Shown piece after piece: positions 18,827 through 64,000 of a DNA stretch of 64,000 nucleotides. The DNA lies in assembly GCA_021816845.1 (NCBI GenBank), contig JAKAWT010000002.1, positions 141,724 through 205,723 of the forward strand, in the 5' to 3' direction. The notes under the pieces are model-generated. The model was not told where the DNA came from and searched no databases. It saw only the letters and a program-made list of their open reading frames with translations. The translations under genes and the position numbers were made by a program. Source of the DNA: a bacterium. GTDB taxonomy: Bacteria; Patescibacteriota; Dojkabacteria; JAKAPS01; JAJZLI01. Every line of letters begins with the position of its first letter. The first letter of the stretch is position 1.

Positions 18827-18829
18827 ATA

Positions 18830-20239
18830 TTAATTTTTATTTCCTAAATTTAATTTTTCTTGTTTGATTTCCTCTATCCTAGTTTTTAACTTATCTGCTA
18901 TGTCATACTCTCTATTTTTTGATGCATTGTACATTTCTTTTTCTAATCTTTTTATTGCTTTATCATATCCATTTGGATCTGCTTTTTTATTTGAAATTTC
19001 TTTATTGCGTTCATCAAGAAAAAATTGTGATGATAGTTTTTTTATTTTTCCTTCCCTTTCCCATGCTATGGCAGTTAGAATAATATCTTCATAATATGAT
19101 CTTCCTTTATCTTTGTCTGATTTTTCTGTGTCCGGGACTAAATCGATTACTACTGAAAGGTTATATGCACCTCTTTCAATCATTTCTATATCCCATACAG
19201 GTTTTGCTGATGCAAAAAAGAATTGGTCATGGTATAGGGATTGATCGAGCAAGTATCTCGCTTTTAGCCATGTTTTTTCCCTTTCTTGAAGATAAGTATA
19301 ATCTATATCTACAATATAAGGATCTTCAATTTGATATATAGAATTATACACAGATTTGAATGCTAAATTAAGTAATCTCTGTTGCAATTGATGAATTTTA
19401 TTATCTTTACTCATCCAACGTTCAAAAGAATTTTGTTCATTATATAAAGGTACAGTCCATGTACTTTGGTTAGGTTTTATATCAAATCTTTTTTTAATCT
19501 TAATTATTAAATCTTTAAACAAGATATAGTGTAGAGATTTTTGATTATATAGATATTCAAACATTTTTATATACCCTATTCTTTGATGTCCAAAAGTTTC
19601 TCCATCTTCTCCTGTATATAAGAACTCACCATTTTTTATTTTATTTTCAAATGAAGATATTAAATCTTCTTTCTTCTCCATTTGGGCAGTTAGGATATAA
19701 AAGCTAGATGCTCTATCTCTTATAAAAATATCTAGTCCATCGTTTTTATATATACATGAATGATCTATCTTTCCATTTATTGCAGTTTCATCAAGTAGTA
19801 TGTATTTATAGCCTGAAGATTCTAATCTAATATTTTTGATAACATCAAAAGATTTTTGGTCATATGCCATTGCTGTAGGTAGAAAACCTAATGGTTCATA
19901 GTTTTTAAAATACATTTTATTAATTTTTCTATTTAACAATATTTGCCTTTCAATTTCTTTTTTAGGTAACATTGGAAGGAACGCTTGGTAAGCTGGAGTG
20001 TCTATAAATTCTATTTGCCCTTGTAATGATAATTGAGATATTGTATCAAGTAAGCCAGTATACCCTAATTTATATAAAGTTTCTGTTAAACCTGCATTTA
20101 TTACAAGATTAATTTTTGCATTCTTATTATTTTTAATAACATTAAATAGAGGTATATAGCTTTCTTCAATAACCTTCTTTAGGATTTCATCTTTTTGTGT
20201 AGGTGGTTGATAAATGAATATCAGATTAGTCCAGTTCAT
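18830..20239 (-). CDS. Glycoside hydrolase family 57 protein, paralog b (possibly catalytically altered)
   Basis: Same architecture as paralog a (NLIFIYQPPTQ, GQIEF, EDGETFGHQ). The position aligned to the nucleophile Glu reads PTAMA. Confidence 0.7.
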   Translation of the reverse strand: MNWTNLIFIYQPPTQKDEILKKVIEESYIPLFNVIKNNKNAKINLVINAGLTETLYKLGYTGLLDTISQLSLQGQIEFIDTPAYQAFLPMLPKKEIERQILLNRKINKMYFKNYEPLGFLPTAMAYDQKSFDVIKNIRLESSGYKYILLDETAINGKIDHSCIYKNDGLDIFIRDRASSFYILTAQMEKKEDLISSFENKIKNGEFLYTGEDGETFGHQRIGYIKMFEYLYNQKSLHYILFKDLIIKIKKRFDIKPNQSTWTVPLYNEQNSFERWMSKDNKIHQLQQRLLNLAFKSVYNSIYQIEDPYIVDIDYTYLQEREKTWLKARYLLDQSLYHDQFFFASAKPVWDIEMIERGAYNLSVVIDLVPDTEKSDKDKGRSYYEDIILTAIAWEREGKIKKLSSQFFLDERNKEISNKKADPNGYDKAIKRLEKEMYNASKNREYDIADKLKTRIEEIKQEKLNLGNKN

Positions 20240-20241
20240 GA

Positions 20242-21768
20242 TTAGAATATTTGATAGTTCATCCCTAATTTGTCTATTGGTCCATTAGTTATATTCATTG
20301 CTCTTATATATATATCTATATATTTCCTTGCAGAATTCTCCCAAGAGAAATCTGTTTTCATTGCGGATTCTACTATTTTTCTCCATAACCCTATATTATT
20401 ATACTGATCTATCGCCCTTACTATCGTACCATATAAGGAATATGGATTATAATTATCAAATAAGAATCCATTACCAGAAATATTCTCCATATTAAAATCT
20501 GTAATAGAATCTGATAATCCACCTATGTTTCTTGCAATTGGAATACAACCATATCTCATTGATTCCATTTGTGTTATTCCTGATGGTTCAAATCTTGAAG
20601 GTATTAGTATCATATCGGCGCCAGAAAATACTTTTTTAGGCAAAATAAAATCAGCCATCAAATGAGTTCCAACCCTTTTTGGGTATTTCTTTTCTAATTT
20701 CTGAAAGTATGATATGTATCTCCCATCTCCACTTCCTATTATTACAAACTGTATATCTTTGTATTCTAGAAAAAGTGGATCCAGTATTTCTATTACAAGA
20801 TCTAATCCTTTCTGATCATCTAATCTTGTAACCATAGAAAGTATAGGGCCATTAGATTTTTCTAAGTCAAATTCTTTTTGTAGAGCAACTTTATTAATAT
20901 GTCTTTTTATTGAACTTCTCCAATCATAATTTTCTACAACATTTATGTCTGTTTCAGGATTCATATATGTATAATCTATACCATTCAATATCCCTACTAA
21001 TTTAGTTCTAACTTCCTTTAAAAGATGTTCTAGTCCTTCTGAGTATTCAGGAGTTAAAATTTCCTTGGAGTATTTTTCAGAAACTGTTGATACTATATCA
21101 GCATACATTATTGCCCTTCTCATAAAATTTTGTTTTTGTAATGCTGGATCAAACAAATCTGCTATCTCTCCTCTCCCATTATCAAAATCTAGATCATTGG
21201 TATTTTTATGATCAAATAATCCTTGATGTACTATATTGTGTATACTAAATACTGTAGATATCTTTGATAGTTTTGGGTCATCTTTATAATTTACTTTTAA
21301 CAAATTTGGGATGTGTCCTGTATGCCAATCTGCACAATTTATTACATCTGGAACCCATGTAGATATCTTTAGAAACTCCATTATTGATAATGATAAAAGA
21401 AGAAATCTGATATGATCATCAGAATATCCATATACATTTGATCTAGTTTCATAGAACTCCTTGTTCTCTATAAAATATACAATAGGTTCTTCTTCACTTT
21501 CTTGGTAAACTTTTATATTGCAAATTATATCTCTTTGTGATTGTGTTGGTATCTTCAATCCTTCATATAACATTTTAAGGGGATACCTTTCTTCGTCAAT
21601 ATTCCCATATTTAGGCATTATTATTCTTGCATCTACACCTTCTTTTTTTAATGCTTTTGTAAGAAAATATGATACCTGTCCAAGACCACCTACGCCAGCG
21701 TAAGGGTAAACTTCAGCAGAGGTATATAATAATTTTATATTGTTCCTAATTTTCATTAAAGAATTCAT
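20242..21768 (-). CDS. GT5 glycogen-synthase-like glycosyltransferase, paralog b
   Basis: N-terminal AGVGGLGQV (the KxGGL motif with Lys replaced). GT-B C-terminal half with SRFEPSGITQM. Confidence 0.7.
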   Translation of the reverse strand: MNSLMKIRNNIKLLYTSAEVYPYAGVGGLGQVSYFLTKALKKEGVDARIIMPKYGNIDEERYPLKMLYEGLKIPTQSQRDIICNIKVYQESEEEPIVYFIENKEFYETRSNVYGYSDDHIRFLLLSLSIMEFLKISTWVPDVINCADWHTGHIPNLLKVNYKDDPKLSKISTVFSIHNIVHQGLFDHKNTNDLDFDNGRGEIADLFDPALQKQNFMRRAIMYADIVSTVSEKYSKEILTPEYSEGLEHLLKEVRTKLVGILNGIDYTYMNPETDINVVENYDWRSSIKRHINKVALQKEFDLEKSNGPILSMVTRLDDQKGLDLVIEILDPLFLEYKDIQFVIIGSGDGRYISYFQKLEKKYPKRVGTHLMADFILPKKVFSGADMILIPSRFEPSGITQMESMRYGCIPIARNIGGLSDSITDFNMENISGNGFLFDNYNPYSLYGTIVRAIDQYNNIGLWRKIVESAMKTDFSWENSARKYIDIYIRAMNITNGPIDKLGMNYQIF

Positions 21769-52707: not shown

Positions 52708-55700
52708 ATGATAGTATCACCTGCAATGTATAAGTATAAAATATTTATAACGTTACTTGTAATATTATTCCTTGCCCCATTATTACACACTAATGCTTTT
52801 GCACAAAGCTATACACCTTCTGAGGTTAGATCCATGAGTGTAGATTCCAAAATAGTTCCAACAGGAAATGGTACTGGTTACTATATAGTATCGAACCAAG
52901 GGATAGTTCAATCTCTAGGATCTGCTAAATATTATGGAGGATTAAATAATATAGCTGTAGTACCAAATCATAATGTTGTAGATATGGTTGTAACACCAAA
53001 TGATGGAGGTTATTATATTTTAACTCAAGACGGAGGTGTTTATAACTTTGGAAATGCTCAGTTCTATGGATCTCTATATAACGTACAGACTGTACCAGTA
53101 AGAGTTGCTGTAAGCATGAAACTTACAACAACAGGAAATGGATATTATATAATGACACAAGAAGGTGGTGTATACACCTTTGGTGATGCAGTGTTCCAAG
53201 GGTCTGCATATACTTACCAGAATTCTCCTACAGTTAATGCTGTATCTTTCCAAGTAACAAATGGAGGTTACTATATCCTAGAGCAAAATGGTGGTGTATA
53301 TACTTTTGGTAGTGCACCTTTCTATGGATCAATGTTTAATGTAGTGGGGAATATTAACAGAACATCAATTGGTATGCAGTTAACTTCTCAAGGTTATATG
53401 ATACAAACTTCTGATGGTGGGGAGTATACATTTGGTAATGCACAGTTTTATGGAACTATCTTTAATATTGTAAATCCTCAATCAACAGTAGTTTCAGATA
53501 CAGCAGTACTTCCAGGAGATGGAGGTTATTACGTTCTTGTATCCAGTGGAGCAGTATATACATTTGGTGATGCAATATATCTTGGTAATTACACAACTTT
53601 GGGAATTTCTAATATAGGGGTTATTACAAATACAGGACCTTTAACGGTTACTGGAGATACTGCTTTGAATGGCAATCTATCTGTTATGGGTGTTATTACA
53701 GCACCATTACTTGATATAAACAATATCAATATATTAAGCAATATATATTTTACAGGTTCAAATCCACAGATAGATACAGGATCAAATTCTCTTACTTTTA
53801 ATGGTAATGGTTCTACAGGTAGTGTATGTTTCTTTAAATGTGCAAATAACGTATCTTCAGGAGGTTCCCTATCACTTCTTGGTGGAGAGTTACTTGGTGG
53901 AAATCTTAATGTAGGTGGGAGTAGTACTAATATACTAAATGGTAATACTGAGTTTAAAGATAACCTAACAGTATCTGGTAATACAAATACTTCTGGTATA
54001 ACGAATACTGGTCTTCTTACAAACAATGGTAATACTATGCTGAATGGAACTTTGAATATAACAGGAAATACAACTTTAAGTAGTAATTTACAGGTTAGCG
54101 GTAATACAAATACTCACGGTATAACGAATACAGGTTCATTGTTTAATGGTGGAAATTTATTTGTTGCTGGTAATGTATTTGTTAGAAATAATCTAGAGGT
54201 ACTCCATAATGTACATATAAATCATAATCTAAAAGTTAAAGGTCATACCAAGACTCATGGTATATATAATAAAGGAACGTTGAGGAATAATGGCATTATA
54301 GAAGCTTTTGGTACTAGAAGAACTAGATATACTTCTTTGGTTTCATTTGGTAAAACAAAGTTATTTGGTGAATTGAATGTTATCGGTCAAACTACAACTC
54401 GAGGTATAAAGAATAATGGGAATATTTCTAATAGTGGTGATTTATCAGTTCATGGAAACGTTGCATTCTTTTCTGATATGGAAGTAGCTGGTAGTACAAC
54501 TATTGGAGGCATATTAAATGTTACAGGCCAATCAACATTTGTTGGTAATGTTACTTTAGCTCAAGACCTCAATGTTGGAGGAATAACAACTACTAATGGG
54601 TTGATAAATAATGACAATTCGGGAATCACAGGTAATTTAAATGTTGGAGGTACTGGAACATTTGGAGGTAATTTAACTCTGACAGGCACCAATCCTCAAG
54701 TCAACTCTACAGGGTCAAATAATCTGACATTAAATGGTAATAGTAATACAGGAGATACATGTTTCTACTCATGCGGTAATAATATAATACCTAACGGATC
54801 TATATCATTCTTGGGTGGAGCCTTACTTGGAGGAAATCTTAATGTAGGTGGCAGCAGTACAAACATATTTAATGGAAATACAGAATTTAAAAATAATATT
54901 ACTGTATCTGGAAGTACAATAACTAATGGTGTAACTAATAATGGTTTGCTTACAAATAACGGGAATATTACATCTACAGGTACAGGAGTATTTTCTTCAT
55001 TTGTATCAGCATCTTTATATCAAATAGCTGGTGTTACAGTATTATCTAATGCAGGTACACAGAATATATTCTTAGGTCAGGCTGCAGGATTAAGTAATAC
55101 TACTGGATCTAATAACTCATTTATAGGTATGCAGGCAGGACAATATAACACGACAGGATCTAATAACACATTCGTGGGTCAAGATGCAGGATCAGGTTCA
55201 GGAATTCAACTTAATAATTCTACAGCAATAGGATACCAGGCATTAGTATCAGAGAGTAATGCAGTGGTACTTGGAGGTATAGGTTCAAATGCAGTAAATG
55301 TAGGTATAGGTACATCTACACCAAATGCAACATTAGAAATTACTGGGGTATCTGGTCAATCCCAAAATTATTTTGATATAACATCAAATGGAGCACCATC
55401 TGGTAATGTATTTTCTATAGATATGAATGGAAATGTAACTATATCTGGTCATATAATAGTACAAGGTGTAACACCAACATTAGTTGAATATCATGGTAAT
55501 ACAGCATCCTTGTCTGATGCCACAGATACATCAGGAGTCCTTCAGTTACAACTGAATGGTATAGCTGTTAGTGGATCAGAAGTTGAGGTTGTATTTGCAA
55601 AACCTTATCAAATTCCTCCTAATGTTGTAATATCACCTGATAATCCTCAAGCTGCGTTAGCATTTTCTAACCAAGATGCTTATGTCATATCATCTAAGAC

Positions 55701-55785
55701 AGGTTTTACTATAGTATTTGGTAGTTTCATTGGACCTCTACCTGCTCTATATGATTATCTTTGGACTTATCAAGTAATACAATAA
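52708..55785 (+). CDS. Large secreted surface protein: signal peptide, six-blade beta-propeller repeat region, duplicated Cys-containing beta-helical modules, and C-terminal phage-tail-fibre-like domain
   Basis: Signal peptide (LLVILFLAPLLHTNAFA). Six repeats of about 45 aa of the form GGYYILTQDGGVYTFGxAxFYGS. Two about 95-aa modules share TGSNxLTxNGN...C(F/Y)xxC...LLGGNLNVGGSSTNIxNGNTEFKxN. C-terminal GxxNT(T)GSNN(S/T)F(I/V)G repeats plus SNAVVLGG...VGIGTSTPNATLEITG resemble tail-fibre / endosialidase-chaperone-type domains. Confidence 0.6.
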   Translation: MIVSPAMYKYKIFITLLVILFLAPLLHTNAFAQSYTPSEVRSMSVDSKIVPTGNGTGYYIVSNQGIVQSLGSAKYYGGLNNIAVVPNHNVVDMVVTPNDGGYYILTQDGGVYNFGNAQFYGSLYNVQTVPVRVAVSMKLTTTGNGYYIMTQEGGVYTFGDAVFQGSAYTYQNSPTVNAVSFQVTNGGYYILEQNGGVYTFGSAPFYGSMFNVVGNINRTSIGMQLTSQGYMIQTSDGGEYTFGNAQFYGTIFNIVNPQSTVVSDTAVLPGDGGYYVLVSSGAVYTFGDAIYLGNYTTLGISNIGVITNTGPLTVTGDTALNGNLSVMGVITAPLLDINNINILSNIYFTGSNPQIDTGSNSLTFNGNGSTGSVCFFKCANNVSSGGSLSLLGGELLGGNLNVGGSSTNILNGNTEFKDNLTVSGNTNTSGITNTGLLTNNGNTMLNGTLNITGNTTLSSNLQVSGNTNTHGITNTGSLFNGGNLFVAGNVFVRNNLEVLHNVHINHNLKVKGHTKTHGIYNKGTLRNNGIIEAFGTRRTRYTSLVSFGKTKLFGELNVIGQTTTRGIKNNGNISNSGDLSVHGNVAFFSDMEVAGSTTIGGILNVTGQSTFVGNVTLAQDLNVGGITTTNGLINNDNSGITGNLNVGGTGTFGGNLTLTGTNPQVNSTGSNNLTLNGNSNTGDTCFYSCGNNIIPNGSISFLGGALLGGNLNVGGSSTNIFNGNTEFKNNITVSGSTITNGVTNNGLLTNNGNITSTGTGVFSSFVSASLYQIAGVTVLSNAGTQNIFLGQAAGLSNTTGSNNSFIGMQAGQYNTTGSNNTFVGQDAGSGSGIQLNNSTAIGYQALVSESNAVVLGGIGSNAVNVGIGTSTPNATLEITGVSGQSQNYFDITSNGAPSGNVFSIDMNGNVTISGHIIVQGVTPTLVEYHGNTASLSDATDTSGVLQLQLNGIAVSGSEVEVVFAKPYQIPPNVVISPDNPQAALAFSNQDAYVISSKTGFTIVFGSFIGPLPALYDYLWTYQVIQ

Positions 55786-55786
55786 T

Positions 55787-56440
55787 TTAGTTATTCTTAT
55801 AATTCTTTAATATTGAAAAAGCTTTATCAACGTCAGTACCACTAAATACTATTGTTAGTTCTTGATATGTTGATATTATATCTGTGAAACTTATATTATT
55901 CCAAGTTAGAAGTTTTAGTATAGAGTAATATACTCCTGGTGTATCCACAGTCTCCTTTGACAATAATATAGTTATAGATGATAGATTGTTTATTCTTGAG
56001 ATTAACCTCTCACCATAAAAGATAGTTTCTACATTTTTTGCTATCTCATTCCCTACCACTAGCATTGTTTCTCGTACACCCTGAGTTAGATTACACAACA
56101 CATCTTTCCTTTTTTCTGAAACAAGGAATATTTTTTTATATTTCTCTACAATAGTATCAGAATTTAGATATGTAAATTCAACTAAATCAGAACGCACAGT
56201 AAGTCCGTTAAAATTTACTATGTTCTCAATATTTACTTTCTTTTGTTTTAAGTTTTTACTAATTCTTTTTAAGGCCATTACTATAGAACCTCTTGTTATA
56301 TCCTTCATAAGGTCATCCTCAATTTGAGGTTTTATTTCTCTTGCAAGAGCAGAATAACTAATTATGCCTCTTGATAAACCATCTTCTAAAAGAGGTTGTT
56401 TTTTTACTAAATTTTGCACTACTTCAGATGTACTTAACAT
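55787..56440 (-). CDS. ACT-domain-like putative regulatory protein, divergent from lysW
   Basis: 217 aa. C-terminal halves resemble tandem ACT-type ligand-binding modules (SITILLSKETVDTPGVYYSILKLL...). Assignment is by pattern only. Confidence 0.3.
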   Translation of the reverse strand: MLSTSEVVQNLVKKQPLLEDGLSRGIISYSALAREIKPQIEDDLMKDITRGSIVMALKRISKNLKQKKVNIENIVNFNGLTVRSDLVEFTYLNSDTIVEKYKKIFLVSEKRKDVLCNLTQGVRETMLVVGNEIAKNVETIFYGERLISRINNLSSITILLSKETVDTPGVYYSILKLLTWNNISFTDIISTYQELTIVFSGTDVDKAFSILKNYKNN

Positions 56441-56523
56441 GTTACAAATGTAACATTATATATTAATTTTGTCAAATTATTTTAAAAATTTGACCTTATT
56501 TTGTATATACGTATAATAGGCTT

Positions 56524-56703
56524 ATGAATATTAAAGTGATTTGTCCAGTATGTGATGCAGATATACTACTTAATAATGATACCAAGGTGTCTGAAGTTAT
56601 TAAATGTACTGAATGCGGAACAGAGCTTGTAGTTGATAAAATTGATGGAACGGATACACTACTATCTATAGCTCCTGAGGTTGAAGAAGATTGGGGGGAA
56701 TAG
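56524..56703 (+). CDS. lysW: Amino-group carrier protein LysW (AmCP)
   Basis: Hand-translated 59 aa MNIKVICPVCDADILLNNDTKVSEVIKCTECGTELVVDKIDGTDTLLSIAPEVEEDWGE. Zn-ribbon CxxC...CxxC and the diagnostic C-terminal EDWGE tail. Below the cutoff of the supplied ORF track. Confidence 0.8.
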   Translation: MNIKVICPVCDADILLNNDTKVSEVIKCTECGTELVVDKIDGTDTLLSIAPEVEEDWGE

Positions 56704-56705
56704 GT

Positions 56706-57557
56706 ATGTTTACTCTTGGTATACTACATTCCACCATTAGATCTGAAGAGAAACTATTAGATAAAGAAGCACAAAGTAGAGGTATTAAGGTAGAACTTAT
56801 TGATGTTAGAAACAAAATTCTAAGCCCCAATTTTAATAATTTTAAGATTGATGTTGCTCTTGAAAGGTGTGTATCAACAGTTCAGGGATCATACGCAATA
56901 AGTTTTCTAGAATCCTTGAATATTAAAGTCATAAACTCTTCCTTGGTAGCGAATATTTGTCAGGATAAGTTTCTGACATCATTAGTTTTAAATAAGGCTA
57001 ATGTTAATACTCCGCCATTTGCATTAGTATTCAGCGTAGATGAAGCTAAGGAAGCTGTAAGAGGGCTTGGTGGATTTCCCATTGTTATAAAACCAAATCT
57101 AGGCTCTTGGGGTCGATTACTTGCAAAAATAAATGATGATGATGCACTAGAATCTGTTATTGAACATAAGAATGTACTTGGTTCTCCACAACAAAAACCC
57201 ATATATATTCAAAAATATATAGATAAACCAGGTAGAGATATACGAGTTTTTGTTATAGATGGTAAGGCTATATGTGCAATTTATAGACAATCCAACCATT
57301 GGATTACCAATACAGCAAGAGGTGGTAAGGCTTTAAATTGTCCATTAACAAAGGATCTTATTGATATATCCAAAAATACTTCTATAGCTTGTGGAGGAGG
57401 TATTTTAGCCATAGATGTATTCGAGACTGATAATGGTCTTAGTATCAACGAGGTTAACCATACTATGGAATTTAAAAATTCAGAAATACCTACAGGGGTT
57501 AGTATTTCTGGTGCAATTATAGATTATTGTATAAAGGTATACAAAAATTATGATTAA
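56706..57557 (+). CDS. lysX: RimK/LysX-type ATP-grasp ligase (LysW--amino acid ligase)
   Basis: ATP-grasp fold (PIVIKPNLGSWGRLL; IYIQKYIDKPGRDIRVFVIDGK; EVNHTMEF). Starts 3 nt after the lysW stop; probable start ATG 56706. Confidence 0.75.
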   Translation: MFTLGILHSTIRSEEKLLDKEAQSRGIKVELIDVRNKILSPNFNNFKIDVALERCVSTVQGSYAISFLESLNIKVINSSLVANICQDKFLTSLVLNKANVNTPPFALVFSVDEAKEAVRGLGGFPIVIKPNLGSWGRLLAKINDDDALESVIEHKNVLGSPQQKPIYIQKYIDKPGRDIRVFVIDGKAICAIYRQSNHWITNTARGGKALNCPLTKDLIDISKNTSIACGGGILAIDVFETDNGLSINEVNHTMEFKNSEIPTGVSISGAIIDYCIKVYKNYD

Positions 57558-58677
57558 AGTTTCAATTATTGGTGGATCTGGATATGCAGGAGGAGAATTA
57601 CTAAGGATTCTTCTAAACCACCCAAAAGTTACAATAGGACAAGTCACTTCTAGACAATTTGCTGGAGAATTAGTCTCATCTGTTCACCCAAATTTAAGAA
57701 AAATGACCAATTTAACATTTACCCATCCAGATGGTTCCCATCCAGATGGTTCCCATCCAGATGGTTCCCGTCCAGATGGACATCCAGATGTATATCCAGA
57801 TAATTTATCACATTGTGACCTTCTTTTTGTAGCTTTACCCAATGGTATATCAATGGGTAAAATGAGAAATTATATGGATGTTGCAGATAGAATCATTGAT
57901 CTTGGATCAGATTTTAGAATTCATGATAAAGATATCTTTTCAAAATGGTACAAGAAAAATCACGAAGATCCAGAATTACTTAATAAATTTGTATATGGTA
58001 TCACAGAACTACACAGAAAAGAGATAAGAGAAGCTAAATATGTGTCATGTGGAGGTTGTGAGGCAACTGCCTCTATACTTGCTCTATACCCACTTTATAA
58101 GAACAATATTATTAAGGACGAAGTAGTAATAAATGCTATCATGAGTAGTTCCCAATCCGGAATGTCAGTATCCTTATCATCCCATCATCCAGAACGTTCT
58201 GGAGTAGTAAGGTCATATATGCCAACTGGACACAGACATACAGCAGAGATAGAACAAGAGTTAGTAGGGATAAAACCATTAATATCAGCTACATCCATTG
58301 ATATAGTCAGAGGACTACATGTTACAATAAACACCACACCAAAAATTCCAATCACAGAAAAAGATATCTGGAAAATCTACAGACAAGAATATGGAGATGA
58401 ACCATTTATAAGGATAGTAAAAGAGCGTAGTGGAATCTATAGATACCCAGAACCAAAGATCTTGCAAGGCACTAACTATTGTGATATCGGGTTTGAACTT
58501 GACACAAGCCTGCTTGACACAAGTCCACCTGGTACAAGTACAAATAGACTAGTTATAATGGCTGCTATAGATAATTTGGTTAAAGGTACAGCAGGACAGG
58601 CAGTACAAGATATGAATGTGATGTTTGGGTTTGAAGAACGAGAAGGACTAGAATTTACAGGCTTACACCCTATATAA
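57550..58677 (+). CDS. argC: N-acetyl-gamma-glutamyl-phosphate / LysW-aminoadipyl-phosphate reductase (ArgC/LysY) with internal HPDGS tandem-repeat insertion
   Basis: MIKVSIIGGSGYAGGELLRIL NAD-binding N-terminus, catalytic Cys region VSCGGCEATAS, C-terminal dimerisation domain. Overlaps lysX by 8 nt. Confidence 0.85.
   Translation: MIKVSIIGGSGYAGGELLRILLNHPKVTIGQVTSRQFAGELVSSVHPNLRKMTNLTFTHPDGSHPDGSHPDGSRPDGHPDVYPDNLSHCDLLFVALPNGISMGKMRNYMDVADRIIDLGSDFRIHDKDIFSKWYKKNHEDPELLNKFVYGITELHRKEIREAKYVSCGGCEATASILALYPLYKNNIIKDEVVINAIMSSSQSGMSVSLSSHHPERSGVVRSYMPTGHRHTAEIEQELVGIKPLISATSIDIVRGLHVTINTTPKIPITEKDIWKIYRQEYGDEPFIRIVKERSGIYRYPEPKILQGTNYCDIGFELDTSLLDTSPPGTSTNRLVIMAAIDNLVKGTAGQAVQDMNVMFGFEEREGLEFTGLHPI
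57723..57806 (+). repeat. In-frame tandem repeat (15-nt unit CCATCCAGATGGTTC x3 plus degenerate copies) encoding HPDGS-HPDGS-HPDGS-RPDG-HPDVYPD inside argC/lysY
   Basis: Directly visible perfect 15-nt tandem copies at about 57723-57767, followed by two diverged copies. Confidence 0.85.
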
Positions 58678-58682
58678 AGATT

Positions 58683-60311
58683 ATGAATGTATCAGAACTT
58701 ATAGTTAAAATATTAGAAAATGAAGGAGTTGATACTATTTTTGGTATTCCTGGAGAAGAAAATGTGACTTTTATGGAAGCTTTATATAAAAGTCATATCA
58801 GGTATATACAAACTGCAGATGAGAGAGGTGCAGCTTTTATGGCTGCCTCATATGGAAGATTACGTGAAAAACCAGGTGTTGTGTTTACAACATTAGGACC
58901 TGGAGCATTGAATATCCCAAATGGGGTATCATTCGCCAATATGGCAGGTATACCACTAATAGCATTAACCTGGCAAAGAGGCATTATACAAAGTAATAAA
59001 GATAACGGTTTCATGTATGTAGATATAAAAAAGGTTTTAAAACCAATAGTGAAATACCAAAGTACTATATCATCTTCTAAAGATGTTATAAATACAATAC
59101 AAAAAAGTTTTTTAATATCAAAAACTCCTAGTCAAGGATCATGCCATATTGAAATACCAGAAGATATTGGAAAACAACAGGTTAAAGAAGATATAATACT
59201 GAAAAAGCCAGTTGTCATAAAATCAAAAAAAATCAATCTTCCAGACATAAATAAAGCTGGGGATATAATTTCAAGTTCCAAAACTCCTCTTATACTTATA
59301 GGTTTTAATGCTAGTAATAATCAAGTAGCTAGGTTAATTAGAGACTTTTCTCAAAAAGCAGATATACATGTTATTACTACTCCTATGGCTCAAGGTATGC
59401 TACCATCTGACCATCCCCTATCCTTGTATTCACTTATTCATACTTCAGATACCCTACTTCAAAAATACTTAAATAGTGTTGATACTATTATATCAATTGG
59501 CTATAACCCAATTGAATTTTCTCCTAGATTTTTTAACAGCAATAAATCTAAGAATATAATACATATAAATTCAGTAAATGCTAAAATTCATCCAAACTAT
59601 ACCCCACAAATAGAAATAATTGGGAAAATTGATGAGGCTTTGGAATTATTGATAGAAAGAGTTGATAAAAAAGAAGGATCTTCAATAGTATTAAATGAAC
59701 TTAAAGAAAAACTAATAAAAAAAAGAAACCATGATTATGCATATCCTATAAAACCAGAATATTTGGTAAATATGCTAAAAAGGGTATCTAGAAACGCTAT
59801 CATAGTACATGACAATGGGATGCATAAACTATGGGTAACCAAGTTTTTTCGCCCTGATAACCCTAATCAAATTATTCTTGATAATGCACTAGCCAGTATG
59901 GGATCTGGAGTTCCCAATGGTATATCTACAAAGTTAATGTATCCAGAGAAAGATGTGATTGTTAATACTGGGGAGGGTGGACTATTAATGTGTCTTGGTG
60001 AGATTTCTACTGCTATATCATTAGATATTGCAATTGTAATATTGGTTTGGCGTGATGGAGGCTATGGAATGATCAATTGGCATCAAAAATCAAATAATCT
60101 ACACTCTTTTGGTGTAACTGTGAAAAGTCCTGATTTTGTGAAATTTATAGAAAGTTTTGGGGGCGTTGGGTATAGAATCAATAATGCTAAAGAATTAGAA
60201 GGTGTCCTTATTAAAGCTTTAAATAATAATAAGTTAACCATTATAGATTGTCCAGTTGATTATTCTGAGAATATTAAAGTATTTAATAAAAATAATTATG
60301 AAGAGGATTAG
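58683..60311 (+). CDS. Thiamine-diphosphate-dependent enzyme of the acetolactate synthase large-subunit family
   Basis: N-terminal Pyr domain (LIVKILENEGVDTIFGIPGEENVTFMEAL...TADERGAAFMAASYGRLREKPGVVFTTLGPGALN) and central FAD/TH3-like domain. C-terminal PP domain has a divergent metal motif GEGG-x24-RD in place of GDG-x24-NN. Confidence 0.8.
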   Translation: MNVSELIVKILENEGVDTIFGIPGEENVTFMEALYKSHIRYIQTADERGAAFMAASYGRLREKPGVVFTTLGPGALNIPNGVSFANMAGIPLIALTWQRGIIQSNKDNGFMYVDIKKVLKPIVKYQSTISSSKDVINTIQKSFLISKTPSQGSCHIEIPEDIGKQQVKEDIILKKPVVIKSKKINLPDINKAGDIISSSKTPLILIGFNASNNQVARLIRDFSQKADIHVITTPMAQGMLPSDHPLSLYSLIHTSDTLLQKYLNSVDTIISIGYNPIEFSPRFFNSNKSKNIIHINSVNAKIHPNYTPQIEIIGKIDEALELLIERVDKKEGSSIVLNELKEKLIKKRNHDYAYPIKPEYLVNMLKRVSRNAIIVHDNGMHKLWVTKFFRPDNPNQIILDNALASMGSGVPNGISTKLMYPEKDVIVNTGEGGLLMCLGEISTAISLDIAIVILVWRDGGYGMINWHQKSNNLHSFGVTVKSPDFVKFIESFGGVGYRINNAKELEGVLIKALNNNKLTIIDCPVDYSENIKVFNKNNYEED

Positions 60312-60312
60312 C

Positions 60313-61638
60313 ATGAATTATTTGATAGATAGTTTTCTAAATTATGGGTTATGTAGTAATAAAGCCTGTCAATTATATATGTCTCCATTCTATTCAGAGC
60401 AAAGATGCCCTATCTGTAATGAACCATCTATTATCCCATCACAGCTTGCACCAATAATAAATAAAAATTCAACAGGTAACATTTATAAACGGTATTTTAA
60501 AGACTATGTCGTGGAGACAATAGATAAAAATGATTTTCTAGAATTATCTAATGGTATAGGTAATACAGATATGATACTGAATAAAAATTTACAAAAATGG
60601 ACAGGAGTAAATAACTTATACTTAAAAGAAGAATATTCTAATCAATCTGGATCCTTCAAAGATAGAGGTACCTTTATGGCAATAGCGTTACTAGAGAAGA
60701 AAAATAATTATAACCCCTTTATACTTGGTACCGTATCTACGGGTAATATGGCAATATCAACTGCGTATATGGTTAATTATATAAACATAGAAACTGGATC
60801 TAAGCTTAAAAGTTTTGTTGTTATAGATAAAGATACTAGGGATGAAAAAATTATGGAGATAGAAAAAGCAGCTGGTAAAACTGGTACTACAATTTTTATA
60901 GTTGATGGTAAATATTACAAATTACATAAAGAAGTATATAAAGCATGTCTTAGATTAAGGGAAGGTAAAGTTAGTGCCTATGCTCAATTAACAGATGATA
61001 TATTTCGCATATCTGGTTATGCCACTTTATTTGGAGAAATTGTTGAACAGGTTAATACACCTGACATAATTATTCTACCTGTTGCATCAGGTGCTTTGTT
61101 TAGGGTTGCTGTTTTTGCACTCGAGTCTTTATATAAAAATAAATATATTAAAAAAATTCCTCACGTGGTATTAGTTCAGGAACAAGGTGCAGACCCTATT
61201 GTTCAGTCCTTCCAGAACAATTTATCCAATATATCCAATATAGAGAATCTTGTCATTAAAAAAAATAATTTTCAAAATAGGCTGATAGCTAGTGGAATTG
61301 ATGTTAGTTTTTCTCACAGTGGATTACCAACTTTAGATATATTAAAGGAGAATTATCACAAATGTATTAGTGTGACATCAAATGAAATAAAATGTGCTTA
61401 TGATGAATTGAACAAAGAAGGTATTTTTGCTGAAGAAGCTTCTGCTGCAGCACTCGCTGCTGTATTAAGATTAAGAAAAGATTCATATATAAAAGGAAAT
61501 ATGGAAGTTGTGTGTGTGCTCACTGGAGGGAACATTAATAAGAGACAAATTAAGGATTCTGGAAATAATTCAAAAAGAGTTTTTTGTAATATAAAGGATC
61601 TTCAAGAAGTAATTATAAGTACATTTAATAATGGATAA
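60313..61638 (+). CDS. Threonine-synthase-like PLP (fold type II) enzyme with N-terminal zinc-ribbon
   Basis: PLP-lysine motif SFKDRG and a glycine-rich loop region. N-terminal CSNKAC...CPIC Zn-ribbon. SD-like AAGAGGA 6-12 nt upstream; start 2 nt after the ThDP-enzyme stop. The supplied ORF track starts at 60256 in the same frame. Confidence 0.75.
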   Translation: MNYLIDSFLNYGLCSNKACQLYMSPFYSEQRCPICNEPSIIPSQLAPIINKNSTGNIYKRYFKDYVVETIDKNDFLELSNGIGNTDMILNKNLQKWTGVNNLYLKEEYSNQSGSFKDRGTFMAIALLEKKNNYNPFILGTVSTGNMAISTAYMVNYINIETGSKLKSFVVIDKDTRDEKIMEIEKAAGKTGTTIFIVDGKYYKLHKEVYKACLRLREGKVSAYAQLTDDIFRISGYATLFGEIVEQVNTPDIIILPVASGALFRVAVFALESLYKNKYIKKIPHVVLVQEQGADPIVQSFQNNLSNISNIENLVIKKNNFQNRLIASGIDVSFSHSGLPTLDILKENYHKCISVTSNEIKCAYDELNKEGIFAEEASAAALAAVLRLRKDSYIKGNMEVVCVLTGGNINKRQIKDSGNNSKRVFCNIKDLQEVIISTFNNG

Positions 61639-62884
61639 TATACATTCACTAGTAGAGAATATAAGAAAGGATGAAGAAGAATCTGTTAATACGTTACATC
61701 TTACAAGTAATGAGAATAGAACATCTAAACTTGCACAGTCTTTTTTATCTTCTCCTTTATCTTTTAGATATATTTTTGGATCAACCCCTAGTGATGTTGT
61801 TGAGACTGTCACAGGCCTTATGTTGAAGGGTATGCCAGGTGTTGTGAGCTTTGATAATATTGCTCAACAGGTAGCACAAGAGATGTTTCATGCTTCTTTA
61901 TCTAATTTTAGACCAACTTCTGGTCTGCACACAACTTTTTGTACAATAACTGGTGCTACTGATGTCGGTGATGTGATTTATTCTATAGATCCAGAGGATG
62001 GAGGTCATTTTGCAACAAGACACTTGGTACAGCGTTGTGGTAGAAAGTCTGAATTTATACCATGGGATAACAATAATTTATCTTTGAATCTAGATCTCTT
62101 TAAAAAGAAGATTAAAAAGATACCTCCAGATGTAATATTATTTGAACATGGAACACCACTATTTAACCTTCCTATAATGGAAGTTAGAGAGATTGTTGGA
62201 GATAAAGTGTTGATAGTTTATGATGCGTCACACACATTAGGCCTTATCGCTGGAGGTTTTTTTCAAGATCCACTTAGAGAGGGTTGTGATATATTACAAG
62301 GGAATACACACAAAACATTTCCAGGTCCTCAGAAAGGGATGATACATTTTAAAAATCTAGAATTTGGCCAGAAAGTTATTAAATCTATTGGTGATGGACT
62401 TGTATCGAGTCAACACTTACATCATGCAATTGCTGAGTATATTACAGTTTTAGAGGTTAAAGAATTTGGACATGAATATGCTAAACAAATGATTTTAAAT
62501 GGGAAAAAACTTGCTGAAAGTCTAGCTCAGGAAGGATTTGATCTTTTCAACAGGGATGGTGTATATACTACATCTCATGAATTACTTATTAAAGGTAGTT
62601 CAACGGGAGGACATTTTCAAGGATGCAGGAGGCTACTTCAATCAGGAATTAGTGCTAATGCTAGAGTAGCATTCAAAACTGAGGTCGTAAGGTTAGGAAC
62701 ACAAGAAGTTACAAGGAGAGGTATGATGGAAGGTGATATGGAATATATAGCGAAACTATTTAGGAGAATTATATTAGATAAAGAACCGATTGATAATGTT
62801 AAGAAAGATGTTATTTCTTTTAACAATAGTTTTCTAAATATACATTATTCATTCGATAAGGAATTTAATTATTGGCAATATTAA
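61631..62884 (+). CDS. Serine hydroxymethyltransferase-like PLP (fold type I) enzyme, divergent
   Basis: SHMT-alignable blocks (LTSNENRTS; GGHFATRH; DASHTLGLIAGG...THKTFPGPQKGMI with the PLP-Lys in THKT). Lacks a clear canonical folate-binding N-terminal block. Overlaps the upstream gene by 8 nt (ATGGATAA). Confidence 0.7.
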   Translation: MDNIHSLVENIRKDEEESVNTLHLTSNENRTSKLAQSFLSSPLSFRYIFGSTPSDVVETVTGLMLKGMPGVVSFDNIAQQVAQEMFHASLSNFRPTSGLHTTFCTITGATDVGDVIYSIDPEDGGHFATRHLVQRCGRKSEFIPWDNNNLSLNLDLFKKKIKKIPPDVILFEHGTPLFNLPIMEVREIVGDKVLIVYDASHTLGLIAGGFFQDPLREGCDILQGNTHKTFPGPQKGMIHFKNLEFGQKVIKSIGDGLVSSQHLHHAIAEYITVLEVKEFGHEYAKQMILNGKKLAESLAQEGFDLFNRDGVYTTSHELLIKGSSTGGHFQGCRRLLQSGISANARVAFKTEVVRLGTQEVTRRGMMEGDMEYIAKLFRRIILDKEPIDNVKKDVISFNNSFLNIHYSFDKEFNYWQY

Positions 62885-63702
62885 CTATGTTACTTATAAA
62901 AATTGGAGGAGGAGAAAAAATTAATATTGATTATATATCTCAAGATATAAGGACTCTTATTAAGGAAGGAAGAAAAGTAATAATAGTACATGGAGCAAGT
63001 GCTACAAGAGATAAAATAGCAAAGAGACTTAATATTCAAACACGAACGATTACTTCACCTTCCGGTATAAGTAGTGTTTACACAGATGGGGATGCAATTG
63101 ATGTATTTTTGATGGCATATGCGGGGTTAATTAATAAAAAGATAGTTGCAAATCTTCAAAAACATAATGTTAATGCTATTGGATTATCTGGTGTTGATGG
63201 TAGATTATGGGAGGCAAAAAGGAAAAATTCTGGATATTTTATTGAAAATGAGAAGACAATGTTTTATAAGGATAATCTAACAGGTAGAGTAGATAAAATT
63301 AATGTATCTTTATTAAATTTGCTGCTTGATAATAAATATGTTCCTGTAATTTGTCCTCCAGCAATCAGCTTTGAAAATGATATTGTGAACACTGATAATG
63401 ATTTTGCAACTGCAACAATGGTTAGGGAGTTAAAGATAAATGAGATGGTTGTTTTATTTGAAGCTCCGGGAATATTGAGGGATTTAAATGACAAATCAAG
63501 TGTTATAAAAAAAATCAAAAAATCTGAAATAGATGAATATATGGTCTATGCTCAAGGAAGGATGAAGAAAAAGTTATTAGGGACAAAGAAAGCTTTCGAG
63601 TCTGATCTTTTTGAAAAAATGTATTGTGGAGATGGTAGGGTGAAACATCCTATCATTAATGTTTTAAATGGTAAAGGGACAACCATAGATTATGGATATT
63701 AA
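62872..63702 (+). CDS. lysZ: Amino-acid kinase family protein (LysZ/ArgB-type, LysW-aminoadipate/glutamate kinase)
   Basis: LIKIGGGE and VIIVHGAS motifs of the acetylglutamate-kinase family; 276 aa. Overlaps the upstream gene by 13 nt. Confidence 0.75.
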   Translation: MAILTMLLIKIGGGEKINIDYISQDIRTLIKEGRKVIIVHGASATRDKIAKRLNIQTRTITSPSGISSVYTDGDAIDVFLMAYAGLINKKIVANLQKHNVNAIGLSGVDGRLWEAKRKNSGYFIENEKTMFYKDNLTGRVDKINVSLLNLLLDNKYVPVICPPAISFENDIVNTDNDFATATMVRELKINEMVVLFEAPGILRDLNDKSSVIKKIKKSEIDEYMVYAQGRMKKKLLGTKKAFESDLFEKMYCGDGRVKHPIINVLNGKGTTIDYGY

Positions 63703-63709
63703 TGTAAAG

Positions 63710-64000
63710 GAACAACAGTATGTCATAAATACATACACAAATAGAAAAATAACTTTAGTTAGAGGAGATTTGGTGTATCTTTTTGATAGTAATAATGAGA
63801 AATATTTAGATTTTATGACCAATTATGGTGTTAACATTTTTGGATACAACCAAAAAACAATAACTGTAGGATTATCTGATCAATTAAGACAATTAACAAC
63901 ACTGCATGGTAGCTTTACAAATGATATTAGAGCTAGAGCATCAGAGGAGATAATAAAACGTTGTGGAGGACTATATAGTGGAGTATTTTGGTCCAATTCT
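63710..64000 (+). CDS. lysJ: Class III aminotransferase (LysJ/ArgD-type), 3' end outside window
   Basis: N-terminus VRGDLVYLFDSNNEKYLDFMTNYGVNIFGY matches the ArgD/LysJ start (RGxGxxLxDxxGxxYLDFxxGxxVxxxGH). Confidence 0.65.

Follow-up and report, generated by a model that had tools for sequence, protein, structure and literature searches.

The locus considered here raises the question of what is made by a carrier-protein operon that holds three additional enzymes between its lysY and lysZ genes. It lies at the 3' end of a 64,000-nucleotide stretch of bacterial DNA (the window in what follows), where eight co-directional open reading frames (ORFs) on the + strand occupy positions 56524-64000. 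They encode the small amino-group carrier protein (AmCP) LysW, the enzymes LysX, LysY, LysZ and LysJ, and, in the position called here the slot, a thiamine diphosphate (ThDP)-dependent enzyme, a threonine synthase (ThrC)-like enzyme and a protein with the fold of serine hydroxymethyltransferase (SHMT). The first-pass annotation had proposed that these three build a non-canonical amino acid on the carrier. The evidence presented below points to another answer. The region is very likely a lysine-biosynthesis operon of the LysW/alpha-aminoadipate (AAA) type, and the best explanation as a whole (a LysW/AAA lysine operon, release of lysine by an N-terminal nucleophile (Ntn) hydrolase and supply of the precursor by the slot enzymes) is given a probability of about 0.5.

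The carrier system and its predicted product

The tight packing of the eight genes, which the first-pass annotation had noted, was borne out. All eight ORFs were confirmed by gene calls and family searches, with spacers of 2, 5, 1 and 2 nt and overlaps of 8, 8 and 11 nt (in order from lysW to lysJ: +2, -8, +5, +1, -8, +2 and -11 nt, negative values being overlaps). The same proteins are encoded on a 287-kb contig of a metagenome-assembled genome (MAG; GCA_027425355.1, locus L001), where the complete lysJ is followed by a ninth gene and then by a strand switch. LysW matched PF21344 (Zn_ribbon_LysW) with 40.6 bits (cut-off 27), while its best NCBIfam models, NF041070 and TIGR01206, remained below cut-off (54 versus 75 bits). 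Its isoelectric point (pI) is 4.1 in the window and about 4.3 across operons, and the EEDWGE tail is kept in 9 of 10 operons. The LysW of the remaining operon (L169, 4603-4785) ends in EEDWGQ, and its C-terminal glutamine would offer no gamma-carboxylate for ligation; either a sequencing error or a genuine variant may account for this ending. LysX, LysY and LysZ all passed their curated models (TIGR02144, 297 bits against a cut-off of 276; TIGR01850, 347 against 234; NF010659, 284 against 223). LysJ matched Aminotran_3 with 308 bits, and its best NCBIfam models were ArgD (354 versus 410) and LysJ (292 versus 700), both below cut-off. The lysY gene contains at 57722-57779 an in-frame 15-nt tandem repeat (3.9 copies, 97% match) that encodes HPDGS units in the NAD-binding domain. 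Its copy number varies among assemblies of the same population, giving LysY lengths of 365, 370 or 375 amino acids, and orthologues elsewhere are without the repeat and measure 340-347 amino acids.

Eleven such operons were compared, namely that of the window/L001 and ten others, obtained by exact-protein look-ups and one genome scan (which gave one relevant locus, L005). The skeleton lysW-lysX-lysY-slot-lysZ-lysJ-ninth gene is common to the ten further operons, and three versions of it were found. In window/L001, L165, L166, L169, L170 and L171 the slot holds the ThDP, ThrC-like and SHMT-fold genes, and in L005 the ThrC-like and SHMT-fold genes only; these seven operons are referred to as the transaldolase type, after the family to which the SHMT-fold protein is assigned below. 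A homocitrate synthase (HCS)-like gene occupies the slot in L173 and L174 and is placed before lysW in L175, TIGR02146 being the best model in all three cases (180-193 bits). In the bare operon L172 the slot is empty. The recurrence of the gene order in relatives, one of the points on which the first-pass annotation was to be judged, was found: the eight-gene order recurs in six further contigs at protein identities of 36-68%, one of them (L005) being without the ThDP gene. It is thereby known from at least seven Microgenomates (CPR) lineages, and a chance arrangement is discounted. That the ThDP, ThrC-like and SHMT-fold genes are a conserved co-inherited module is supported. No operon among the 11 holds both this module and an HCS-like gene, for which the hypergeometric chance of zero overlap (7, 3, 11) is 4/165 = 0.024 by a hand calculation that ignores kinship. 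In a metagenome scan with the transaldolase alignment, none of the matches listed exceeded 45% identity and none of the 80 listed loci contained LysW genes.

The substrate of such an operon is set by LysX, in which five residues determine the specificity for AAA versus glutamate (F182, I192, T203, N258 and S259 in Thermus thermophilus; PMC12998189, 2025). In the window LysX all five (F-I-T-N-S) are identical to those of the AAA-specific T. thermophilus enzyme, which is also its best match in the PDB (260 bits, followed by the bifunctional Thermococcus kodakarensis enzyme with 196 and ArgX with 138). The same signature was present in 8 of 10 operons whatever the slot content, the two exceptions differing at 1-2 positions, and an ArgX-type signature was found in none of the 10 operons compared. 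LysX is predicted from these residues to be AAA-specific. Furthermore, the core enzymes do not diverge with the slot content: the mean identities within the transaldolase type and between types are 63.0 and 64.9% for LysX, 68.4 and 68.3% for LysY, 53.7 and 56.2% for LysZ, and 57.0 and 56.9% for LysJ.

Lysine as the product is suggested by the lysyl-tRNA synthetase (LysRS) gene that directly follows the last operon gene in L005, L166, L172, L174 and L175, and hence adjoins operons of all three types, two of the five (L005 and L166) carrying the transaldolase module. Four of the five adjoining synthetases pass curated LysRS cut-offs. The window has its own class-II LysRS gene, 41 kb from the operon. 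Class I and class II LysRS alternate between lineages at the same genomic position, and the operon-adjacent enzymes carry extra C-terminal domains (B3_4 in class I and class II enzymes, DUF2000 in L174). Because of the LysX signature, the uniform LysX, LysY, LysZ and LysJ, the HCS-like genes and the LysRS adjacency, a route from AAA to lysine is the most economical reading for all three versions of the operon. In this route LysX would ligate free AAA to the C-terminal glutamate of LysW, LysZ would phosphorylate the bound AAA, LysY would reduce the phosphorylated LysW-AAA to the semialdehyde, and LysJ would transaminate the latter to LysW-gamma-lysine.

An on-carrier route from glutamate was also considered and was dropped on account of the AAA-type LysX signature. 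In such a route LysX would load glutamate, LysZ and LysY would make LysW-glutamate semialdehyde, the transaldolase-type enzyme would extend it to LysW-3-hydroxy-diaminopimelate, and the ThrC-like enzyme would dehydrate this to LysW-2-amino-6-oxopimelate. The latter would be transaminated to diaminopimelate, or decarboxylated by the ThDP enzyme to LysW-aminoadipate semialdehyde and then converted to lysine. This would use every enzyme of the operon without an unlinked aminotransferase, and a choice between diaminopimelate and lysine as product would explain why the ThDP gene is optional. ArgD-type enzymes of Escherichia coli transaminate N-acyl-2-amino-6-oxopimelate, which also counts for this route, as does the acceptance of glutamate conjugates by LysZ and LysY of Thermus (PMC12998189). 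However, the LysX signature is AAA-type and not ArgX-type in both the transaldolase and the HCS versions, LysX, LysZ, LysY and LysJ do not diverge with the slot content, and the slot enzymes are not basic (see below). A glutamate route is therefore regarded as very improbable.

Basic docking patches are characteristic of enzymes that act on AmCPs (PMC11726168). The median pI is 9.3 for LysZ, 9.1 for LysJ and 8.9 for the product of the ninth gene, whereas it is 5.7 for the ThDP enzyme, 6.4 for the transaldolase-type enzyme and 6.8 for the ThrC-like enzyme. As the slot enzymes are acidic to neutral, they are read as enzymes that do not handle LysW. This bears on the proposal of the first-pass annotation, namely that they extend or hydroxylate the LysW-bound semialdehyde to a non-canonical amino acid, as in the DADH-type pathways of Streptomyces. 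With AAA loaded, the product would be for example a C8 diamino-hydroxy diacid or homolysine. The slot genes are translationally coupled between lysY and lysZ, their products are not of housekeeping types, a transaldolase requires an aldehyde and LysY produces one, and AmCP pathways with extra C-C bond-forming enzymes are known (PMC11726168). Apart from the pI values and the AAA-type LysX, this proposal is disfavoured by the absence of any divergence in LysX, LysY, LysZ and LysJ between operons with and without the module, and by the LysRS adjacency, which points to lysine in two transaldolase-type operons as well. It also leaves unexplained why the module and an HCS-like gene exclude each other in one slot, and the ThDP enzyme is dispensable in L005. 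Moreover, the host is a minimal-genome bacterium of the candidate phyla radiation (CPR), with no export, ligase or other secondary-metabolism genes in the window. On balance, tailoring on the carrier is thought to be improbable.

The ninth gene and its probable role in the release of lysine

In the known LysW pathways lysine is released by LysK, and a LysK-type hydrolase directly downstream of the window had been looked for on the basis of the first-pass annotation. Instead, an EgtC-like Ntn hydrolase is encoded there. It is the last operon gene in all 10 operons of which the 3' end is covered, and no LysK-type M20 gene was present in the operon in any of the 11 loci. An M20 protein encoded near L166 was considered as LysK and rejected, since it is PepT-like (270 bits versus 64 for LysK).

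The Ntn protein is a stand-alone protein of 206 amino acids without a synthase domain. It gave no Pfam match above threshold and a weak match to a class-II amidotransferase-domain protein in the PDB. Its match to the EgtC model was also weak (E = 1.4e-5, 24.5 bits against a cut-off of 219), which indicates that it is not an EgtC orthologue. The family counts 557 cluster representatives or more, most of them without a name; NCBI calls one of them 'class II glutamine amidotransferase', and GATase_4 is found in several. The protein starts with M-C, and C2, H80-x-R82 and N109-G110 are invariant in 41 sequences. By comparison with GlmS and PurF, C2 is presumably the nucleophile, R82 would bind the glutamyl carboxylate and N109-G110 is taken to be the oxyanion hole. 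The AlphaFold (AF2) model has a pLDDT of 94.5, and when it was searched with Foldseek the top matches were all EgtC (TM 0.73-0.75, probability 1.0), followed by the glutaminase domains of GlmS and PurF.

The bond between LysW and lysine is a gamma-glutamyl amide on a C-terminal glutamate with a free alpha-carboxylate. Because EgtC hydrolyses a gamma-glutamyl amide, release of lysine is proposed as the role of the Ntn protein: its N-terminal cysteine would attack the gamma-glutamyl-lysine isopeptide bond of LysW-Lys and free the lysine. Given its place in the operon, its fold and its basic character, which it shares with LysZ and LysJ, the Ntn hydrolase is probably the substitute for LysK. If so, the family would fill the missing LysK step in these genomes, and cleavage of a protein-bound gamma-glutamyl isopeptide would be a new activity of the class-II amidotransferase fold. 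Annotated relatives of the Ntn gene come from Roizmanbacteria, Levybacteria and Shapirobacteria, and judged by sequence the host lineage is of the Microgenomates type within the CPR, with a small genome.

The slot enzymes and a possible front end of the pathway

The generic names of the models matched by the slot proteins (acetolactate synthase (ALS) large subunit, threonine synthase-like, SHMT Pfam) would allow that ilvB-, thrC- and glyA-like housekeeping genes of branched-chain, threonine and glycine/one-carbon metabolism merely lie within a lysine operon, and reduced genomes often merge unrelated genes into operons. The properties of the three proteins argue against this. The ThDP enzyme has all three TPP domains and passes NF006187/PRK08322 (546 versus 509 bits). 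It fails the models for IlvB (TIGR00118, 302 versus 538) and for AlsS (NF006378, 364 versus 510; TIGR02418, 330 versus 551), and among PDB entries the FAD-independent AlsS-type enzymes come nearest to it. Its family is very large, scores falling by a moderate step after the two nearest representatives, and most orthologues have a net charge of about -9. There is no ALS small-subunit gene in the operon, and neither a small-subunit gene nor ilvC, ilvD, hom or thrB was found near it.

The ThrC-like protein matched PALP with 156 bits and failed all six curated ThrC models (TIGR00260, 90 versus 167), whereas TIGR00260 is passed at 183-202 bits by the nearest outgroup, which consists of Zn-ribbon proteins from Thermococcus and Clostridia. 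It belongs to a clade of 16 representatives, after which the score drops from 244 to 159 bits, and which was monophyletic in 100 of 100 bootstraps, with a long stem. The lysine motif SFKDRG for pyridoxal phosphate (PLP) is kept, while the clade has fixed changes at motifs conserved in ThrC (INS to LT, NPxPP to VSxSR and TW to SG). Compared with both bacterial and Zn-ribbon ThrCs the replacements are N226L, S227T, N331V, P334S, P335R and W113G. Loss of the phosphate-site motifs relative to bacterial ThrCs only is not used as an argument, as STGNM, DDPFR and the Zn-ribbon are shared by Zn-ribbon proteins for which the curated ThrC model is passed. The AF2 model (pLDDT 90.8) resembles threonine synthases about as closely as it does the dehydratases serine racemase and TdcB (threonine deaminase).

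The third slot protein had been labelled SHMT-like. This holds for its fold and not for its type, which is that of the threonine transaldolases: TIGR04506 scored 296 bits (cut-off 650) and the SHMT model NF000586 200 bits (cut-off 335), both below cut-off. Transaldolases are recognized by the catalytic residues H131, D204, K234, Y55 and R366 (ObiH numbering) together with a remodelled loop 1 (PMC10495429). All five residues are kept in the window protein, and an insertion in loop 1 after Y55 is present in the LysW-linked proteins, in the same pattern as in ObiH and in transaldolase-like proteins of Streptomyces. The true SHMTs aligned (from E. coli, Methanocaldococcus jannaschii and methanogens) all keep the residues S35, E57, Y65, F257-P258 and K346-N347. 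By comparison, the folate-site residues are replaced in the window protein (E57 to F, Y65 to L, K346-N347 to A-R) and across the LysW-linked proteins (E57 to F or L, Y65 to L or F, K346-N347 to A-R), as they also are in ObiH and the Streptomyces proteins. The LysW-linked clade was monophyletic in 98 of 100 bootstraps, and relatives at 54% identity or less sit in unrelated gene contexts. The closest of these (54% identity; L167 9218-11885, a Bdellovibrionales MAG) lies between a short-chain dehydrogenase gene and a RidA/YjgF-family gene, which may indicate a separate small pathway in which reactive enamine or imine products are likewise handled. A 552-residue protein from a 2.3-kb contig (P0008) is 61% identical to the transaldolase-type protein and carries both SHMT and PALP Pfam domains; the two genes, ThrC-like and transaldolase-type, may here be fused or read through.

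The failed cut-offs, the lost folate residues and the two well-supported clades uphold the view of the first-pass annotation that, as far as sequence can tell, the slot enzymes are not housekeeping IlvB, GlyA or ThrC. The three genes also travel together only with LysW operons, and both PLP enzymes form narrow clades. A housekeeping role is the least probable of the explanations considered.

The module is thought, with somewhat better than even confidence, to provide the AAA precursor by a way that bypasses the homocitrate route, acting on free metabolites. A specific chemistry can be proposed more tentatively. The ThDP enzyme would decarboxylate 2-oxoglutarate to succinic semialdehyde, the transaldolase-type enzyme would join a glycyl unit, donated by threonine or glycine, to this aldehyde and so form 3-hydroxy-2-aminoadipate, and the ThrC-like enzyme would dehydrate and deaminate the latter to 2-oxoadipate, which an aminotransferase, either unlinked or LysJ itself, would convert to AAA. 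ALS-family 2-oxoglutarate decarboxylases exist in cyanobacteria (PMC10418658, PMC5160925), and transfer of a glycyl unit to aldehydes is the reaction of threonine transaldolases (PMC10495429). For L005, where the ThDP gene is absent, a possible source of succinic semialdehyde is gamma-aminobutyrate (GABA), acted on by a transaminase of the ArgD/LysJ type, since ArgD-family transaminases can form the semialdehyde from GABA. The net outcome would be a '+1' elongation of a 2-oxo acid, as achieved by homocitrate synthase, homoaconitase and homoisocitrate dehydrogenase. Since this is the outcome of the homocitrate branch as well, it fits the mutually exclusive occupancy of the slot. Among the local genes, in the window and its flanks, none for these three enzymes was found. 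That the pathway differs from the classical one at both ends jointly, with a three-enzyme 2-oxoadipate front end and an Ntn hydrolase in place of LysK, must be considered doubtful.

The first step of the proposed chemistry was assessed by comparison with the decarboxylase MaKGD, in which H385, K386, D435, D462, Y465, L467 and K471 contact 2-oxoglutarate or ThDP (PMC10418658, PMC5160925). When compared by these published positions only, H381, K382, E431, D458, Y461 and M463 of the ThDP enzyme correspond to MaKGD positions at a constant offset of 4, while the equivalent of K471 is H467. The catalytic E47 is present. At residue 431 the window protein reads GEGG, as against GDGG in five orthologues, and Asp is found here in 132 of 133 relatives; a D-to-E variant of a cyanobacterial 2-oxoglutarate decarboxylase is reported to have stayed active (PMC10418658).

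Alternatively, the ThDP enzyme could be a carboligase of the acetolactate/acetoin type that removes the acetaldehyde set free by the transaldolase when threonine is the glycyl donor, and so pulls that reaction forward. The role of the module in supplying AAA via 2-oxoadipate would then be kept, and succinic semialdehyde would have another source, such as GABA acted on by an ArgD/LysJ-type transaminase. Transaldolases do release acetaldehyde, and removal of the by-product drives the reaction; the ThDP enzyme is closest to structures of catabolic AlsS, its PRK08322 model bears the name 'acetolactate synthase large subunit', it is optional, as seen in L005, and ArgD can act as a GABA transaminase. 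However, PRK08322-type proteins are not known to be biochemically established as acetolactate synthases. Besides, the ThDP gene is kept in 6 of the 7 transaldolase-type operons at a fixed position, its motif positions agree with those of the reported 2-oxoglutarate decarboxylase, and no GABA-forming decarboxylase was seen in any locus. This scavenging role is considered unlikely, if somewhat less so than tailoring on the carrier, and 2-oxoglutarate decarboxylation is retained as the proposed activity.

Several observations weigh against the preferred explanation. The slot chemistry was deduced from reactions typical of the families and from what would make AAA. The H-K, GxG and D..Y.M pattern of the ThDP enzyme is frequent in the 150 nearest representatives and thus common to the whole subfamily, and the ThDP gene is absent from L005. 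In the transaldolase-type clade there is nothing to indicate that the aldehyde acceptor is acidic: when a clade-specific basic residue was sought, the sole fixed difference was N179, which is not basic. The route calls for an alpha-aminotransferase, for which there is no gene in either the operon or the window. Homocitrate synthase by itself does not yield 2-oxoadipate, so that sharing a slot is no proof of sharing a role, and the scores of the HCS-like genes stay under the curated TIGR02146 cut-off. Only 11 operons were sampled, and these are phylogenetically related. Docking patches are only crudely represented by a global pI, and T. thermophilus LysX loads some glutamate (<10%), which means that the signature reflects preference and not exclusivity (PMC12998189).

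Genomic surroundings and relation to known systems

The features of the locus and of the compared operons are collected in Table 1. The start of the ThrC-like gene given there is the called start, that of the longest ORF being 60256. The divergent gene upstream of lysW encodes an ACT-like protein (Pfam ACT_7, E = 4.6e-4, and a faint match to DUF7523), for which no other informative PDB, structural or HMM match was found. An orthologue of about 216 amino acids is divergent upstream of lysW in 9 of the 10 operons of which the 5' side is covered, of all types including HCS, and from its position it is a candidate lysine- or amino-acid-sensing regulator of the operon. The sigma-70-like match between the two genes (11 of 12 matches) is joint-best in 10.6 kb, which is suggestive of a lysW promoter. 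Overall, promoter-like matches were not above shuffled expectation (70 versus 61 +/- 8). The window is AT-rich, with about 30% G+C. No convincing terminator was found within the nine-gene operon, and a search of the window at Rfam gathering thresholds gave no riboswitch, T-box or other RNA family.

Table 1. Positions of the operon genes, of neighbouring features and of other genes mentioned in the text (window coordinates unless a locus is named)
Feature	Position	Strand	Remarks
lysW, amino-group carrier protein	56524..56703	+	59 aa, Zn-ribbon, acidic, C-terminal EEDWGE
lysX, ATP-grasp ligase loading amino acid onto LysW C-terminal Glu (predicted)	56706..57557	+	TIGR02144
lysY (ArgC family), [LysW]-aminoadipate-6-phosphate reductase (predicted)	57550..58677	+	TIGR01850
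ThDP-dependent ALS-family enzyme, slot gene 1	58683..60311	+	three TPP domains, NF006187/PRK08322
Zn-ribbon ThrC-like fold-type-II PLP enzyme, slot gene 2	60313..61638	+	PALP
SHMT-fold threonine-transaldolase-type PLP enzyme, slot gene 3	61631..62884	+	TIGR04506 best model
lysZ, [LysW]-aminoadipate kinase (predicted)	62887..63702	+	NF010659
lysJ, class-III aminotransferase	63692..64000	+	cut by window end; full gene 385 aa; Aminotran_3
Ntn hydrolase, ninth gene	L001 16172-16792		206 aa; outside window, 4 nt after lysJ; EgtC-like model
ACT-like gene, divergent from lysW	55787..56440	-	217 aa; weak ACT-domain match
Sigma-70-like promoter match directly upstream of lysW	56490..56517 (L001 7838-7865)	+	TTGACC-16-TATAAT
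Operon-adjacent LysRS, L005	8977-11856
Operon-adjacent LysRS, L172	9699-12008
Operon-adjacent LysRS, L175	10690-13029
Operon-adjacent LysRS, L166	7378-9621
Operon-adjacent LysRS, L174	10663-12549
Class-II LysRS of the window	13532-14977
Repeat protein	52708-55785	+	1025 aa
Glycogen-metabolism block	16060-21768	-
ThyX-matching ORF	4924-6723	+	599 aa

The remainder of the window consists of housekeeping genes typical of a reduced bacterial genome. The first-pass annotation had noted little other amino-acid biosynthesis in it, and indeed no further genes of this kind were seen. Three other features may be recorded. The repeat protein has a signal-like N-terminus, many YY(I/V)...GGVYTFG repeats and no Pfam match on record; it is probably a surface protein. 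In the glycogen-metabolism block, two glycogen/starch-synthase-like genes are accompanied by a tandem pair of GH57 paralogues, both of these ending in a UvrB/UvrC-type motif, an unusual combination of domains. The ThyX-matching ORF is far larger than a normal ThyX (FAD-dependent thymidylate synthase), to which it matches over residues 142-313 only and below cut-off.

The arrangement had been taken to be undescribed, and a literature search, in which subscription-only papers were outside the scope, found no match. It yielded no LysW operon with an Ntn hydrolase, no LysW operon with a transaldolase or ThrC-like module, and no aldol-dehydratase route to 2-oxoadipate. Most accounts of CPR bacteria (Patescibacteria) deny them the ability to make amino acids. 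Conservation of a lysine operon would show that one large lineage keeps this capacity, and comparison of the operons identifies which parts of the classical pathway were swapped. If the proposal for the slot is true, the three-gene module represents a previously unknown 2-oxo acid elongation and a new entry into lysine biosynthesis, relevant to pathway evolution, to gap-filling tools and to the engineering of adipate- and aminoadipate-derived products.

A precedent for the order of reactions in the slot is the beta-hydroxyaspartate cycle, in which an aldehyde and glycine are joined by the aldolase BhcC to a beta-hydroxy amino acid that the dehydratase BhcB converts to an imino or oxo acid. The ThrC-like protein gave a weak match to the NCBIfam BhcB model (48.5 bits). 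The chemistry is C4 there and would be C6 here, the aldol enzymes belong to other families, and there is no imine reductase here. With the threonine transaldolases (ObiH, LipK and fluorothreonine transaldolase; PMC10495429) the slot protein shares the SHMT fold, the catalytic H/D/K and Y/R residues, the loss of the folate residues and the remodelled loop 1. It differs in being only about 30% identical to ObiH, in lying in a primary-metabolism operon, and in having no counterpart of the additional C-terminal domain found in fluorothreonine transaldolase (409 of the 609 model positions are matched). The ThDP enzyme resembles cyanobacterial OgdA/KGD (PMC10418658, PMC5160925) in its three-domain architecture and in the H-K/GxG/D..Y.(L/M) pattern at a constant offset, a likeness established by published positions only, while it differs at the Lys471 position of MaKGD (His) and in the GEGG of the window as opposed to GDGG.

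The Ntn protein and EgtC (PDB 4zfj, 4zfk, 4zfl) are both stand-alone proteins of the class-II glutamine-amidotransferase fold with an N-terminal cysteine, and the gamma-glutamyl amide cleaved by EgtC is the same type of bond as in LysW-gamma-Glu-Lys. The identity is, however, about 15%, the genes lie in lysine operons and not in ergothioneine clusters, and the Ntn protein is proposed to act on a protein, at its C-terminal glutamate, instead of on a small gamma-glutamyl compound.

DADH-type pathways of Streptomyces use a transketolase on a carrier-bound semialdehyde, and neither a transketolase nor a ligase or exporter is encoded in the window operon or its flanks. The AmCP pathways of Streptomyces (DADH for vazabitide A, ficellomycin and azinomycin; PMC11726168) have in common with the present system a LysW-type carrier, homologues of LysX, LysZ, LysY and LysJ, and extra C-C bond-forming enzymes in the cluster. 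They load glutamate, whereas LysX is of the AAA type here, the slot enzymes look like enzymes of free metabolites, and the product is apparently proteinogenic lysine. The closest counterpart is the LysW/AAA pathway of T. thermophilus, with its EDWGE-tailed carrier, identical LysX signature, orthologous LysZ, LysY and LysJ and, presumably, the same product. It is fed by homocitrate synthase and ends with LysK, where the window operon has the ThDP/ThrC-like/transaldolase-type module and an EgtC-like Ntn hydrolase as its last gene; here, moreover, the host is a CPR bacterium and a lysyl-tRNA synthetase gene often stands at the operon end. The core very likely belongs to the known LysW/AAA lysine system; the probable replacement of the missing LysK and the slot module look new.

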